Origin: Escherichia phage BB1
DNA length: 64,000 nt
Sequence record: NC_106597.1
Strand: one strand, 5' to 3'
Of this stretch, positions 221 to 8,250 are shown one piece after another. The notes beneath the pieces were generated by a model. The model ran no database searches. It worked only from the letters and a program-made list of their open reading frames with translations, and had not been told where the DNA came from. Both the position numbers and the translations under genes were made by a program. Within the stretch, counting starts at the first letter, position 1; the number at the start of each line of letters is the position of its first letter.

Positions 221-404
221 TTTGATTGTTTTCAGTGCAAGAGTCCGAGTCTTGGACACGACCGCTTTGCAAGTACATAGGCAGCTTATCATGAGTCAGC
301 ACTTCCGAATTGCTAGCTCCGTGTTCTGCACTGAAATTTTGTTTAAAGAGTCCGGTGTAGCAGTCCGTAAGGGTGCACCTACTGTAGCCTTTACTCTTTA
401 AATT

Positions 405-642: not shown

Positions 643-828
643 TTACTCAGCTTTGAGTTTTTCAATAGCTGCATTAAGTTCTTTAAGAAACTCTTTTCGT
701 ACATTAAGACGGTTGAGACTTACTAGTATATCATGTTTAAGTTCTTCGATGTATTTCTTCTCAACTTCAATATTGTTGAGAGTGCTATCACGATGAACTT
801 CTAGCTGTGCAATTACATTCTTGGACAT
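643..828 (-). CDS. hypothetical small protein (61 aa, coiled-coil-like)
   Basis: ORF with GAGGAAAC RBS-like motif upstream of ATG; no recognisable domain. Confidence 0.4.
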   Translation of the reverse strand: MSKNVIAQLEVHRDSTLNNIEVEKKYIEELKHDILVSLNRLNVRKEFLKELNAAIEKLKAE

Positions 829-930: not shown

Positions 931-1013
931 TGGCGGGCCGTGTAGGATTCGAACCTACGTTGTCTTTCGACATGGATTAACAGTCCACCGCCAAACCGCT
1001 TGGCTAACGACCC
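931..1013 (-). tRNA. tRNA-Asn (anticodon GUU) with unusually long 13-nt variable arm
   Basis: Manual fold: acceptor GGGTCGT/ACGGCCC, D-arm GCCA-AGCGGTT-TGGC, anticodon arm GTGGA-CTGTTAA-TCCAT, variable GTCGAAAGACAAC (GAAA tetraloop hairpin), T-arm GTAGG-TTCGAAT-CCTAC, CCA encoded. Confidence 0.65.
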
Positions 1014-1165: not shown

Positions 1166-1241
1166 TGGACGACCGCATGAGATTTGAACTCACATAAAAA
1201 GGATTTGCAATCCTTCGCCTAAGCCATTCAGCCAACGGTCG
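1166..1241 (-). tRNA. tRNA-Cys (anticodon GCA)
   Basis: Manual fold: anticodon stem aagga/tcctt with loop rc of tttgcaa, T-loop TTCAAAT, acceptor pairs with one G-U, encoded CCA. Confidence 0.75.
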
Positions 1242-1289
1242 ATTTATCTTGTTCTGTCATGTTGCTTCTCCAGTTCAATTTATGTAATT

Positions 1290-1318
1290 ATTATACAGAA
1301 CTTTTGGAAACTAAGCAA
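1290..1318 (-). promoter_or_regulatory. early promoter, sigma70-like (minus sense TTGCTT-17 bp-TATAAT)
   Basis: Plus-strand attata at 1290-1295 and aagcaa at 1313-1318 with 17-bp spacer; member of the repeated promoter family. Confidence 0.6.
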
Positions 1319-1583
1319 CTACATTTTTTAAGAATTTGATGCCTTTCTTTTTCTTCTTATATTTCCACGTTAATGGATTCTGTCGATTATGAACGCTTGA
1401 GATCTTTGTCTCGTCAAAGTTCTTCAATATCATGTAATCACAAGATAATTGTTCTAATGGAATGTGATCACCGTCAAAAGCATATACATAAGGCTGTTGA
1501 CTAGCACGATAATGATAGACTTTGTTAATTCTACGTTTCAGCGACTTATCCGCGCAGTAAATAAAGAAATTTTCAGGATGCAT
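1311..1583 (-). CDS. hypothetical protein (90 aa)
   Basis: ORF with AAAGGAG RBS before ATG. Confidence 0.5.
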   Translation of the reverse strand: MHPENFFIYCADKSLKRRINKVYHYRASQQPYVYAFDGDHIPLEQLSCDYMILKNFDETKISSVHNRQNPLTWKYKKKKKGIKFLKNVVA

Positions 1584-1600
1584 CAGCAGCTCCTTTAAAT

Positions 1601-1675
1601 TGGTGCACCCCGTTGGTAACGATCCAACCTCTCAAGCTCTTCAGGCAAGCGCTAATCCATCTCAGCTAAAGGTGC
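1601..1675 (-). tRNA. tRNA, tentative anticodon GAA (Phe); non-canonical (U-U mismatches in anticodon stem, T-loop ATCGTTA)
   Basis: Manual fold: acceptor GCACCTT/GGGGTGC, T-stem GGTTG/CCAAC, anticodon loop CTGAAGA; anticodon stem has only 3 of 5 pairs. Confidence 0.45.
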
Positions 1676-1681
1676 AAATTT

Positions 1682-1758
1682 TGGCAAACCTACTAGGACT
1701 CGAACCTAGACCGTACGGTTTTGGAGACCGACATGCTGTCCAGTAACACTCTAGGAAT
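1682..1758 (-). tRNA. tRNA-Trp (anticodon CCA), tentative
   Basis: T-arm CTAGG-TTCGAGT-CCTAG, anticodon loop CTCCAAA, encoded CCA; acceptor and D-arm pair poorly. Confidence 0.5.
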
Positions 1759-1766
1759 GCAGAAAT

Positions 1767-1843
1767 TGGCGTCCTGTGCGGGGATCGAACCCACAAATCC
1801 TACCTTGAAAGGGTAGTGACTTTACCAGTTTGTCTAACAGGAC
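1767..1843 (-). tRNA. tRNA-Glu (anticodon UUC)
   Basis: Manual fold: perfect acceptor (gtcctgt/acaggac), anticodon stem ctacc/ggtag with loop rc of ttgaaag, T-loop TTCGATC, encoded CCA. Confidence 0.75.
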
Positions 1844-2325
1844 TTAAATTGCTTATTGGATAGATTGTTAAACTCGGAAAGTATTTCGTTTACACCTCTG
1901 TCTAACACTACCCATTCATTAAGCCGTTCAGGAAAGCTATTATGAAGCATTTTCTCCGCTTCTCTAGCATTAAACCAAAATGACCAATGTATTAACTTAT
2001 AATCACGTAAAGGAGAATAGGTTTGGTAATTTCCTAATCTTGTTTTAGGATCAGAAGACATACCAATTTTTACATAGTTATCCCAAGCTGGGTTAGTTAT
2101 TGCGTAAATAAAACCACAGCTGGATTTTTCTCCAATACTTTTGTTATACTTGATAAAAGATAGTGCAGATAACTTCAAGCTATATCGACGATTACTATCG
2201 CGACCAAAGTTAGCTGTACCGAATGTGAGGCTTTCTAACATTAGATCTTTGTTTATATCAGCTGGTGAACCCAACTGTATAATACCCCTATTTGCAGCTT
2301 CTTGAATTATCCGATCAATATACAT
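1834..2325 (-). CDS. T5orf172-type GIY-YIG-like domain protein (putative homing-type endonuclease)
   Basis: 163 aa; motif CGFIYAITNPAWDNYVKIGMSSDPKTRL resembles the GIY-YIG/T5orf172 core; AAAGGTAAAGG RBS; stop codon overlaps the 5' end of tRNA-Glu. Confidence 0.55.
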   Translation of the reverse strand: MYIDRIIQEAANRGIIQLGSPADINKDLMLESLTFGTANFGRDSNRRYSLKLSALSFIKYNKSIGEKSSCGFIYAITNPAWDNYVKIGMSSDPKTRLGNYQTYSPLRDYKLIHWSFWFNAREAEKMLHNSFPERLNEWVVLDRGVNEILSEFNNLSNKQFKSC

Positions 2326-2342
2326 ATCCTTTACCTTTAATT

Positions 2343-2430
2343 TGGTGGGCGTTAATGGAGTCGAACCACTCGAGTCGCAATGACCAGGGATTTACAATCC
2401 CCTCCGCTACCACTTACGGAATAAACGCCC
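2343..2430 (-). tRNA. tRNA-Tyr (anticodon GUA), long variable arm
   Basis: Manual fold: acceptor GGGCGTT/AACGCCC, anticodon loop TTGTAAA, long variable region, T-arm AGTGG-TTCGACT-CCATT, CCA encoded. Confidence 0.75.
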
Positions 2431-2558
2431 ATATTTAAAAGTATTCAAATACTAGTTTAAACACTTTTAAATATGTTTCCAAATTAGATAACTATTATAC
2501 CAAGTTTTAAGGCACTGAGCAAGTCAAATTTTAAAGAACTTGCTCAGTGCTGTATTAG

Positions 2559-2834
2559 TTAGTCGAACTTAGGAGTGACAGTTAAGGAGAATGGAAGTTC
2601 GAAGACTTCTTCGCCCTCATCACTAACAGTAATTACACGACCTTTAAGTTCAGACATTGAAATATCAATATCAGCTTTTGCATCTGGAGCCATGCCAGCT
2701 TCAACACATTTAGCTTTAATTTCCGGCAGAAGTTCTACATCGTAGAAATAAAGCCATTCAATCTCACCTTCCCAGCCTTCCCAGGATTTACAGATTGCAC
2801 TTTCAATACCAGTTGCTATAACACGATTTTGCAT
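2559..2834 (-). CDS. hypothetical protein (91 aa)
   Basis: ORF with GAAGGAG RBS. Confidence 0.5.
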   Translation of the reverse strand: MQNRVIATGIESAICKSWEGWEGEIEWLYFYDVELLPEIKAKCVEAGMAPDAKADIDISMSELKGRVITVSDEGEEVFELPFSLTVTPKFD

Positions 2835-2924
2835 TCGTTAACTCCTTCATCAATTTATATAACTATTATACCAGAAATTTAAAGCAAAAGGCAAGTACAT
2901 TTTTAAAAATTCTGTTTGGAGGAG

Positions 2925-3131
2925 CTAAACTCCAGATTCTTCAGCTAAGTCTAGGCTAATAAGAGATATAGCCATAATTGCTGCTCCGTGTTCTCTTTCT
3001 CCTGTCTCTTTAGCTAGGGTTATAATATCAAGAAATTGCTTATGAAAGTCTGCAACCTCTTGAGTCATACCTGCCTCAGCAATCATGCCTTTAAGCATGA
3101 AACGTTGTGCGGTAATTTCGGGATTAGCCAT
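2925..3131 (-). CDS. hypothetical protein (68 aa)
   Basis: ORF with GGAG RBS. Confidence 0.45.
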   Translation of the reverse strand: MANPEITAQRFMLKGMIAEAGMTQEVADFHKQFLDIITLAKETGEREHGAAIMAISLISLDLAEESGV

Positions 3132-3291
3132 GTTGTTTCTCCAGTTTCATGTTTAATAGTCTACAAATAAAATCAATGTCTTCATCTGTGCCTAGATCTC
3201 TATCTTCAAGAGTTGCCTTGAAGTTTTTCGTCAATTCCATGAGGATAACTTCTCTAGAACGACGTGTTGGCGGAGGTGGATGTCTATACAT
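3124..3291 (-). CDS. hypothetical small protein (about 55 aa, proline-rich N-terminus), below ORF-track size cutoff
   Basis: Hand-translated MYRHPPPPTRRSREVIL...; AAGGAAATAAG RBS; stop overlaps start of downstream gene. Confidence 0.4.
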   Translation of the reverse strand: MYRHPPPPTRRSREVILMELTKNFKATLEDRDLGTDEDIDFICRLLNMKLEKQHG

Positions 3292-3305
3292 CTTATTTCC
3301 TTAAG

Positions 3306-3382
3306 TTGGTAGGGGTGGTGGGATTCGAACCCACAAAACCTGAATTTTAAGTCCAGTACCTATGCCAATTCGATTACACCCC
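3306..3382 (-). tRNA. tRNA with anticodon UAA (Leu-type) but short class-I variable loop
   Basis: Manual fold: acceptor GGGGGTG/CACCCCT, anticodon arm CTGGA-CTTAAAA-TTCAG, variable GTTTT, T-arm GTGGG-TTCGAAT-CCCAC, A73, CCA encoded; D-arm does not pair canonically. Confidence 0.55.
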
Positions 3383-3484
3383 CATGTAATCAGTTTATTA
3401 GTTGGTACATATTATAGCCTAGTGAAAATCCTACTACTAGTCCCACAAACCAACCAATATAATAATCTTTTAGTTTCACAGGTA

Positions 3485-3887: not shown

Positions 3888-3965
3888 TTGGTGGCTCCCC
3901 GAGGATTCGAACCTACGTACCTTCCGGTTATGAGCCGGGTGCTCATACCATATGAGCTTGAGAAC
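3888..3965 (-). tRNA. tRNA-Met or tRNA-Ile (anticodon CAU)
   Basis: Manual fold: acceptor GGTTCTC/GGGAGCC (with G-U), D-arm GCTC/GAGC, anticodon arm CCGG-CTCATAA-CCGG; T-stem only 3 bp; CCA encoded. Confidence 0.55.
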
Positions 3966-3971
3966 CAAAAT

Positions 3972-4087: not shown

Positions 4088-4609
4088 TTAGAAATTTAGC
4101 TTCATAGCAAGAAAATTTTTCAAGTTTTCGGTAGACATCTCATCTACATCTACAGGAGAAACAAAGCCGTTTAATTTTCTAGCAAATTTTTCACCATCGG
4201 GATCATTGTCTCCAACAGCTACCAATTTAAAAGGTAGTAATTTCAGTTGCTTTAATAACGCTTTTCCTGGAGAAGAACCCAACATTGCTAGGGCTGGATA
4301 ACCAGCGTTATGTAACGCAACTGCCTTAAATACAGATTCAGCAATCAATACTACTTTTTCATCTCCATTGAGAGTTTCTAGTCCCCATACACACTGGGTA
4401 GTAGAATAAGTAAAGTATTTAGCTTCAAAGGGGCACTTACCATGACCTTTTGGAGCAGAAGGATTATAAGTTTGATAGCCCCTCAACATCCCAGAGAAGT
4501 CATACAACGGGACTGTTAGCCATCCTTCTGGACTTAACCAGCAATGATATTTATCTGTATCAAATCCCCTAGATAAGAGGTGCTGTGTTAGCTCATCAAC
4601 ATTCATATT
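4088..4609 (-). CDS. Toprim-domain-like protein (about 173 aa)
   Basis: Conserved-looking E (IAESVF) and DxD (VGDNDPDGEKF) resembling the Toprim fold; start moved to MNVDELTQ with GAGAGGAACC RBS downstream of promoter 4637-4665. Confidence 0.45.
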   Translation of the reverse strand, partial: NMNVDELTQHLLSRGFDTDKYHCWLSPEGWLTVPLYDFSGMLRGYQTYNPSAPKGHGKCPFEAKYFTYSTTQCVWGLETLNGDEKVVLIAESVFKAVALHNAGYPALAMLGSSPGKALLKQLKLLPFKLVAVGDNDPDGEKFARKLNGFVSPVDVDEMSTENLKNFLAMKLNF

Positions 4610-4636
4610 TGGTTCCTCTCTCAAATTTATAGATAT

Positions 4637-4665
4637 ATTATACAGAGAATTTAGCATTCAAGCAA
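4637..4665 (-). promoter_or_regulatory. early promoter (minus sense TTGCTT-17-TATAAT)
   Basis: attata 4637-4642, 17-bp spacer, aagcaa 4660-4665. Confidence 0.6.
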
Positions 4666-8172: not shown

Positions 8173-8250
8173 TCTTACCGACCGTAGGATTCGAACCTAC
8201 ATCTTCCACCAGTTACGGCTTGATAATACCAATTATACTAGGACGGCAGT
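8173..8250 (-). tRNA. tRNA-like element (possible pseudo-tRNA)
   Basis: Canonical T-arm GTAGG-TTCGAAT-CCTAC but no CCA, mismatched acceptor and no clean anticodon arm. Confidence 0.3.

Follow-up and report, generated by a model that had tools for sequence, protein, structure and literature searches.

A putative T5orf172-type homing endonuclease gene between phage tRNA genes takes its stop codon from the downstream tRNA-Glu

In the window, that is, the whole 64,000-nucleotide stretch of Escherichia phage BB1 analyzed here (NC_106597.1), a reading frame of 163 amino acids sits between the genes for tRNA-Tyr and tRNA-Glu and ends inside the latter. With a probability of roughly 0.8, we read this frame as a member of the T5orf172 branch of the GIY-YIG nucleases, a free-standing homing endonuclease gene that occupies a 6-nt Tyr/Glu spacer and whose overlap with the tRNA is mostly a by-product of that location. 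We consider the annotation of the locus settled as a real T5orf172/GIY-YIG homing-type gene between tRNA-Tyr and an intact tRNA-Glu, a case that is real but largely ordinary and that does not overturn current understanding. Nuclease activity, a target site, and homing are what we infer for the product. By sequence comparison, the window belongs to a T5-like phage (Demerecviridae, Tequintavirus/Epseptimavirus), the region sharing 98% identity with Escherichia phage slur09 and resembling that of hundreds of T5-like phages.

The tRNA-Glu(UUC) gene, which has an encoded CCA and is the "Glu-A" gene as in T5, was placed at 1767..1843 on the minus strand by ARAGORN (anticodon ttc), and the Rfam tRNA model covers 1770..1843 on the same strand (58.4 bits) with an identical 5' end. 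This boundary at 1843 is firm because direct reading gives a perfect 7-bp acceptor stem (GTCCTGT/ACAGGAC) followed by G and the encoded CCA; furthermore, the first 30 nt of the tRNA and the 8 nt upstream match T5 at 38 of 38 positions. Both predictors and the list of open reading frames thus bear out what the preliminary description had claimed, namely, that the stop codon of the frame overlaps the 5' end of tRNA-Glu, and automated prediction did not shift the boundary. The frame itself runs from an ATG at 2325..2323 and occupies 1834..2325 (minus strand), with a helical N-terminal region (aa 1 to 63) and a C-terminal T5orf172/GIY-YIG nuclease domain (aa ~70 to 160). Its final codons are CAA TTT AAG TCC TGT TAG, in which the tRNA begins with the G of AAG (nucleotide 1), continues with TCC TGT (nucleotides 2 to 7), and provides the TAG at 1836..1834 as U8-A9-G10. 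Consequently, the 10-nt same-strand overlap (1834..1843, minus strand; GTCCTGTTAG) supplies the end of a Lys codon, Ser, Cys, and the stop, while the tRNA stays intact. Upstream, tRNA-Tyr(GUA) lies at 2343..2430 on the minus strand (ARAGORN; it aligns with the tRNA-Tyr of relatives), and the insertion starts directly after its encoded CCA (2345..2343). A 17-nt leader (2326..2342, minus strand), in which a Shine-Dalgarno-like AAAGG/AAGGA can be read (AATTAAAGGTAAAGGAT-ATG), separates tRNA-Tyr from the start codon and is kept in two other phage contigs, L089 and L091.

The inserted cassette does not bring a stop codon with it; the last five codons of the frame plus the stop come from the older spacer and the tRNA gene. 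A copy 88 to 89% identical (contigs L089 and L091; HEG1b arrangement) sits at the same position after tRNA-Tyr and adjoins a different tRNA-Glu(UUC), "Glu-B," which begins GCACCTATCG. Beside Glu-B, where the spacer is ATTTTAAT, this copy ends CAA TTT TAA, 1 nt before the tRNA. The TAA of the spacer is in frame with the longer Glu-B spacer and out of frame with the 6-nt ATTTAA, so that U8-A9-G10 of the tRNA is used in the window. A one-base difference in spacer length would therefore be the simplest account of the overlap, one that would explain it without any special function; the natural variant with a conventional stop also indicates that the overlap is dispensable for the persistence of the gene. 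We considered whether the two tRNA-Glu sequences were alleles swapped together with the endonuclease gene and rejected this, as phage TrudiGerster (MZ501108.1, 76092-76780; locus L100, 311..469) carries both in tandem, in the order Tyr-AATTTAAT-GluB-AATTAAT-GluA and then Trp, with no endonuclease gene. Glu-A and Glu-B are thus paralogous genes with unequal upstream spacers. Other T5-like phages keep a single Glu gene, Glu-A in the window and T5 and Glu-B in L089, L091, and SSP1; the tRNA cluster consequently varies by differential retention of paralogous genes.

Reading into the next tRNA is a recurrent feature of the family. Using tblastn and ARAGORN over all fetched loci, we measured the distance from each T5orf172 stop to the next same-strand tRNA (negative values lying inside the tRNA). 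Eleven of 15 gene/site combinations in phage tRNA clusters stop 10 to 43 nt inside a tRNA: at -10 nt, the window type (Glu-A), pKMKP103/L009 (Asn), TrudiRoth/L011/L014 (Lys-UUU), and L056 (Lys); at -15 nt, SSP1/L010 (Glu-B'), SE19 (Glu), and SE11 (Leu); at -24 nt, T5 ORF065/L013/Kenya-K18 (Asn); at -27 nt, the T4-like Aeromonas phage 44RR2.8t.2 (Lys); at -39 nt, Kenya-K45 (Arg); and at -43 nt, My1 (Ser). Three more stop 0 to 1 nt before it, L015 (Asp) and GlastoCabaret (Pro) at 0 nt and L089/L091 (Glu-B) at +1 nt, and Vibrio phage Chazly21 (Asn) stops at +86 nt. As a control, we tallied by hand, from the annotation tables of these loci, 25 other non-redundant annotated CDSs that immediately precede a tRNA: 4 overlap the tRNA, 12 end 0 to 11 nt before it, and 9 end further away. 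The difference in overlap (11/15 versus 4/25) gives a Fisher p of 5e-4, to be read with the fact that the 15 cases are related and not independent. Stop triplets are common at the beginning of tRNAs, with one at nucleotides 8 to 10 in 85 of 142 distinct tRNAs of these loci and a median read-in of 22 nt over all tRNAs and frames. A stop-less frame beside any tRNA therefore ends soon in the stop-rich 5' half; the enrichment of read-through among T5orf172 genes is not fully explained by such accidents.

Several observations accompany this survey. An unannotated T5orf172 frame of 44RR2.8t.2 (KY290948.1; locus L095, about 1501..1851) lies between tRNA-Tyr and tRNA-Lys and runs 27 nt into tRNA-Lys; as this phage belongs to the Straboviridae, the read-in pattern is not confined to T5-like phages. 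According to the AY587007 annotation, T5 ORF065 would end 45 nt before tRNA-Asn, a placement we rejected since it ends 24 nt inside the tRNA by ARAGORN positions. All tRNA features in AY587007.1 32757-35576 (locus L004) lie 68 nt away from their ARAGORN positions, tRNA-Tyr, for instance, being given as 297..384 versus 229..316. Relatives from IMG/VR were set aside as evidence on the overlap, because most of the 80 loci hold environmental T5orf172 genes with no tRNA nearby. A few small CDSs without a tblastn match to the query (L005, 1913..2092 and 2192..2356; L006, 2528..2719; L096, 46..447) end 7 to 23 nt inside the next tRNA. Many other CDSs of tRNA clusters stop 0 to 11 nt before a tRNA, and the clusters are tightly packed in general. 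In the literature searched, we found no paper on overlap between reading frames and tRNAs that involves homing endonucleases or T5orf172, and the systematic placement of the stop inside the downstream tRNA is the sole element of this case not found there, which makes it a modest observation.

The overlap raises the question of whether a selfish nuclease has its expression coupled to the processing of a tRNA. It could be a selected regulatory device, the endonuclease mRNA serving as a spacer of the tRNA precursor and RNase P cleavage limiting the dose, which we regard as unlikely. The predicted RNase P site at the tRNA-Glu 5' end splits the Lys codon into AA and G, 10 nt ahead of the point where the stop codon ends; a cut there would remove the last 2.3 codons and the stop, and it is similarly doubtful that the resulting non-stop mRNA, handled by tmRNA, matters for expression. 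Nor do we give much credence to the corollary that intact protein comes only from unprocessed precursors, by which a potentially toxic nuclease would be kept low and coupled to tRNA maturation; conversely, ribosomes on tRNA nucleotides 1 to 10 might delay processing. Co-transcripts of mRNA and tRNA cut by RNase P are familiar from E. coli secG-leuU and from the tRNA punctuation model of mitochondria, where 5' processing of the tRNA sets the 3' end of the upstream coding RNA. In the window, by contrast, the predicted cut falls upstream of the stop codon, and for phage endonuclease genes, no such case was found in the literature searched. A regulatory role is favored by the recurrence described above, which includes the T4-like Aeromonas phage, and by a reason to limit dosage: T4 SegB has been called potentially toxic, tRNA-like sites being widespread (PMC2330249). 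Against it, the copy beside Glu-B terminates at an ordinary TAA that leaves 1 nt to its tRNA; the gene can thus be maintained without the overlap, which could be at most a modulator. The overlap lengths (10, 15, 24, 27, 39, and 43 nt) vary as expected from the first in-frame stop, given the median read-in of 22 nt; the 15 cases are not phylogenetically independent; and a stop 0 to 1 nt before the tRNA would also leave an mRNA ending at its stop, so that the overlap adds little. A trade-off between translation and RNase P processing, as the preliminary description suggested, is plausible from the arrangement of the two genes. Extended to the family, T5orf172 genes of tRNA clusters would be "stop-less" cassettes that take the stop of a tRNA (often U8-A9-G10) and whose messages become non-stop mRNAs upon RNase P maturation, a generalization that we hold to be rather improbable. 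If it is true, the processing of a tRNA would set an inherent limit on the dose of a selfish gene, and the 11 of 15 cases across Demerecviridae and the T4-like Aeromonas phage would be explained.

The preferred reading, a homing endonuclease gene in a tiny spacer, is carried by the comparison of occupied and empty sites. The tRNA cluster of relatives, to which the preliminary description had pointed as informative, indeed revealed a presence/absence polymorphism, with 38 occupied records, about 186 with the empty pattern, and the Salmonella phages vB_Sen_TUMS_E3 and Kenya-K37. When the window, slur09, and GreteKellenberger were aligned with vB_Sen_TUMS_E3 and T5 and annotated tRNA spacing was taken into account, a segment of ~493 bp (1849..2341, minus strand) was missing from the relatives with an empty site; as a CAA stands at either end, the edges can be placed only to within 3 nt. 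The flanks of vB_Sen_TUMS_E3 and Kenya-K37 are 97 to 98% identical and match in two pieces, without exactly these ~493 bp, and the gap between tRNA-Tyr and tRNA-Glu is 6 nt in both phages, as also annotated in vB_Sen_TUMS_E3. In the alignments, the empty junction reads ...CCCACCA-ATTTAA-GTCCTGTTAG... and the occupied one ...CCCACCA-AATTAAAGGTAAAGGATATG...AATAAGCAATTTAA-GTCCTGTTAG.... A 60-nt probe over the junction of the frame and the tRNA matched in full in 38 phage records (several of them GenBank/RefSeq duplicates), in agreement with tblastn, which also gave 38 records at 95 to 99% protein identity. In another 186 records, T5 and BF23 among them, the match was limited to CAATTTAA and the initial 30 nt of tRNA-Glu; this pattern is the product of Tyr-CCA, ATTTAA, and Glu, as confirmed directly in T5 and vB_Sen_TUMS_E3, and these records appear to have the empty site.

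Related genes occupy analogous places. SSP1 has a 44%-identical paralogue at the same Tyr/Glu position, and paralogues elsewhere are found at Tyr/Asn, Cys/Asn, .../Lys, Ala/Leu, Leu/Pro, and other sites. Six of the 15 T5orf172 sites directly follow tRNA-Tyr, whose 3' part may be a candidate piece of the target. In phage AZ21 (LC788708.1; locus L007, 1201..1392), aa 1 to 62 are retained at 98% identity and joined directly to tRNA-Met by a deletion, which reads as a decay remnant; tRNA-Glu, tRNA-Trp, and tRNA-Phe are missing from this stretch. At the edges of the gene, one tRNA-Tyr or tRNA-Glu gene gives way to a different one, the downstream tRNA-Trp being shared. Close relatives thus either carry the gene at this locus or have an intact empty site there, and the family of the gene is spread over analogous sites with decayed copies; owing to the exact empty site and to the paralogues at the same and at other inter-tRNA sites, it behaves like a free-standing homing endonuclease gene. 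Its 163 aa are small for a homing endonuclease, a point against this reading. A possible marker of co-conversion, a D-loop ACTGG in the window versus ACGGG in vB_Sen_TUMS_E3 that seemed linked to the gene, was discarded because T5 and ~185 records with the empty pattern carry the window version; there is thus no co-conversion signal, and no flanking polymorphism linked to the presence of the gene was found among the window, vB_Sen_TUMS_E3, T5, and the junction-probe records.

Under the homing interpretation, the cassette inserted in the Tyr/Glu spacer would have comprised a stop-less frame preceded by a short leader that carries a ribosome-binding site. Translation would cross TTTAA, which is what is left of the spacer, enter the tRNA gene, and end at the conserved U8-A9-G10 (TAG). 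By analogy with characterized relatives, the protein would cleave a co-infecting relative at its empty Tyr/Glu allele or at a nearby tRNA sequence, and recombinational repair would then copy the gene into the cut relative. The overlap would most simply be a by-product of insertion in a tiny spacer beside the stop-rich 5' half of a tRNA, with no dedicated device.

A further reading, which we judge quite improbable, is that the gene is not mobile and encodes a domesticated T5orf172 protein that serves the phage, for instance as a regulator or as a nuclease directed at hosts, competitors, or satellites; ordinary loss from a dispensable region would then account for the patchy distribution. Strong purifying selection (dN/dS of 0.06) would fit such a role, although the same selection is equally expected for an actively homing gene. 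The tRNA region of T5 tolerates deletions, as known from T5 deletion mutants, which would favor loss. Domestication of T5orf172 proteins has occurred elsewhere, as in Odn of ICP1 and proteins of PLE (PMC8263062, PMC8096241). What tells against a resident gene is the exact empty site within flanks 97 to 98% identical, the presence of different paralogues at the same site in a family scattered over many inter-tRNA sites, and the coincidence of the gene boundaries with switches between different tRNA-Tyr and tRNA-Glu genes; exact empty sites, site sharing, and boundary switches are all typical of homing endonuclease genes (PMC10448857).

The family assignment of the product, proposed in the preliminary description as GIY-YIG/T5orf172, was confirmed by profile search and fold. 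Pfam T5orf172 (PF10544) scored 34.8 bits and MUG113 (PF13455) 34.6 bits, both over aa 71 to 134 and above the curated cut-offs of 20 and 22.3 bits, respectively, and both domains were found in 15 of 15 database homologues. At an E value of 1 or less, the Pfam search returned only these two families and no canonical GIY-YIG match. Residues G71, Y74, K86, G88, R96, and E124 are invariant across 15 aligned homologues, and the Tyr of GIY, the xIG motif, the Arg, and the putative catalytic Glu can be assigned among the conserved residues by motif order. An AlphaFold model built with the homologue alignment (pLDDT of 87.4, pTM of 0.82) has a helical N-terminal part (aa 5 to 63) and a beta-beta-alpha-beta-alpha C-terminal domain, a predicted arrangement that agrees with the GIY-YIG alpha/beta fold. 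The link to solved GIY-YIG nucleases comes from fold comparison only, a profile search of solved structures having given unrelated proteins at best (E of 0.19). The N-terminal region matched no recognizable DNA-binding family in Pfam, and fold comparison gave weak matches only. PHROGs assigns the protein to phrog_5032, a group labeled there as of unknown function, and NCBI names an 89%-identical protein "GIY-YIG nuclease family protein." Relative to the 88 to 89% identical copy of the two other phage contigs, dS is 0.9 and dN 0.055 to 0.06, and the resulting dN/dS of ~0.06 indicates strong purifying selection on the frame. Taken at the level of sequence, the frame is a real gene of the T5orf172/GIY-YIG type with presumed nuclease activity. 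That it is a chance frame or dead remnant, with the overlap an annotation artifact, is refuted, although it is left unannotated in several public records such as slur09 (automated annotation often drops such frames because of the tRNA overlap), by the Pfam scores above the cut-offs, the confident predicted fold, the intact frame in 38 records with its low dN/dS, and a tRNA 5' end fixed by two independent methods.

The gene is a further case of a known type, as seen from the annotation of its orthologue, the NCBI naming, and the published abundance of the family. GreteKellenberger (MZ501072, BASEL collection) carries bas26_0098, whose protein is 98% identical and which has the same Tyr/Glu position and 10-nt overlap; its public annotation is "putative homing endonuclease," with coordinates that overlap tRNA-Glu. 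The same gene is present in ~37 other T5-like phage records (slur09, GEC_vB_N3/N5/N7, S114, S116, and others), and neither bas26_0098 nor these copies differ materially from the window gene. Paralogues such as T5 ORF065 (AY587007), SSP1 gp017, TrudiRoth bas30_0119, and pKMKP103 CDS0005 are 25 to 55% identical, of similar size, and located between tRNAs, and they end 10 to 24 nt inside the downstream tRNA; they differ from the window gene in lying at other inter-tRNA sites or at the same site with different flanking tRNA genes. Published work treats T5orf172 genes as homing endonuclease genes that form a subfamily within GIY-YIG, abound in T5-like phages, and sit at boundaries of genetic exchange, with one member whose nuclease activity depends on a conserved glutamate (PMC10448857). 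The genes studied there by Barth et al. (2023), from ICP1 and other phages, share the Pfam family and the boundary location with the window gene; that paper mentions tRNA only as satellite integration sites, with no tRNA-cluster locations or stops inside tRNA genes. The T5orf172 family thus colonizes inter-tRNA spacers of T5-like phages, usually reading into the next tRNA, which helps explain the mosaicism of phage tRNA clusters.

Homing-type endonucleases in phage tRNA clusters are a known theme, as the preliminary description had stated, exemplified by T4 SegB (PMC2330249) and the HNH-type F-Tfl enzymes of T5 (cited in PMC10644984). The segB gene lies in the T4 tRNA cluster, and its product, a GIY-YIG homing endonuclease, cuts a conserved tRNA (TpsiC) motif in relatives without segB and so leads to preferential inheritance of the tRNA region (PMC2330249). 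Both segB and the window gene are free-standing genes of the GIY-YIG superfamily located in a phage tRNA cluster and absent from close relatives. However, SegB is a canonical GIY-YIG protein (PF01541-type) and the window protein matches T5orf172/MUG113 only; moreover, canonical Seg proteins (SegA-G) have an N-terminal catalytic and a C-terminal DNA-binding domain, whereas the nuclease domain of the window protein is C-terminal (aa ~70 to 160). The window protein is therefore not a member of the Seg family, although it is SegB-like in location and probably in role, and by analogy its gene may be viewed as the T5 counterpart of T4 segB. For segB, the passages of PMC2330249 consulted gave no stop codon within a tRNA. 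The F-TflI/II/IV and F-TslI enzymes are site-specific endonucleases of the T5 tRNA region (Akulenko 2004, as cited in PMC10644984); their genes, which underlie much of the variation among T5-like genomes, belong to the HNH family, unlike the GIY-YIG window gene.

Co-transcription of the gene with its tRNA neighbors, also expected in the preliminary description, is consistent with the anatomy, since only 17 nt separate tRNA-Tyr from the ATG and there is no room before tRNA-Glu; the consensus scans of the region speak neither for nor against it. The best sigma-70-like match in these scans is a TTGCCT-18-TATAAT with TG at 2865..2894 (minus strand), and no terminator-like site was found on the minus strand in 1200..3400; promoter and terminator matches were no more numerous than in shuffled sequence. 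A candidate transcript from 2865..2894 would include an ORF at 2834..2559, tRNA-Tyr, the endonuclease gene, and tRNA-Glu/Trp/Phe.

A dense minus-strand tRNA cluster, in which ARAGORN finds 10 tRNAs, makes up the first ~8 kb of the window. Rfam adds three that ARAGORN missed, all on the minus strand: 1604..1675 (33.4 bits; tRNA-Phe in the slur09 annotation), 3892..3966 (40.3 bits; tRNA-Met in the GreteKellenberger annotation), and 8176..8247 (35.5 bits). The tRNA-Asn at 931..1013 (minus strand) is 83 nt long by ARAGORN versus 78 nt, with a different 5' sequence, in T5 and several relatives; an insertion, or the presence of a different Asn gene, may account for this. At 643..828 (minus strand), a 61-aa frame matches DUF7337 end to end (E of 2e-29) and ends 9 nt before tRNA-Asp, likewise in related phages. 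Additionally, a 189-aa frame at 4088..4657 (minus strand) has a weak Toprim-like match (E of 1e-4) and ends 21 nt before tRNA-Ser.
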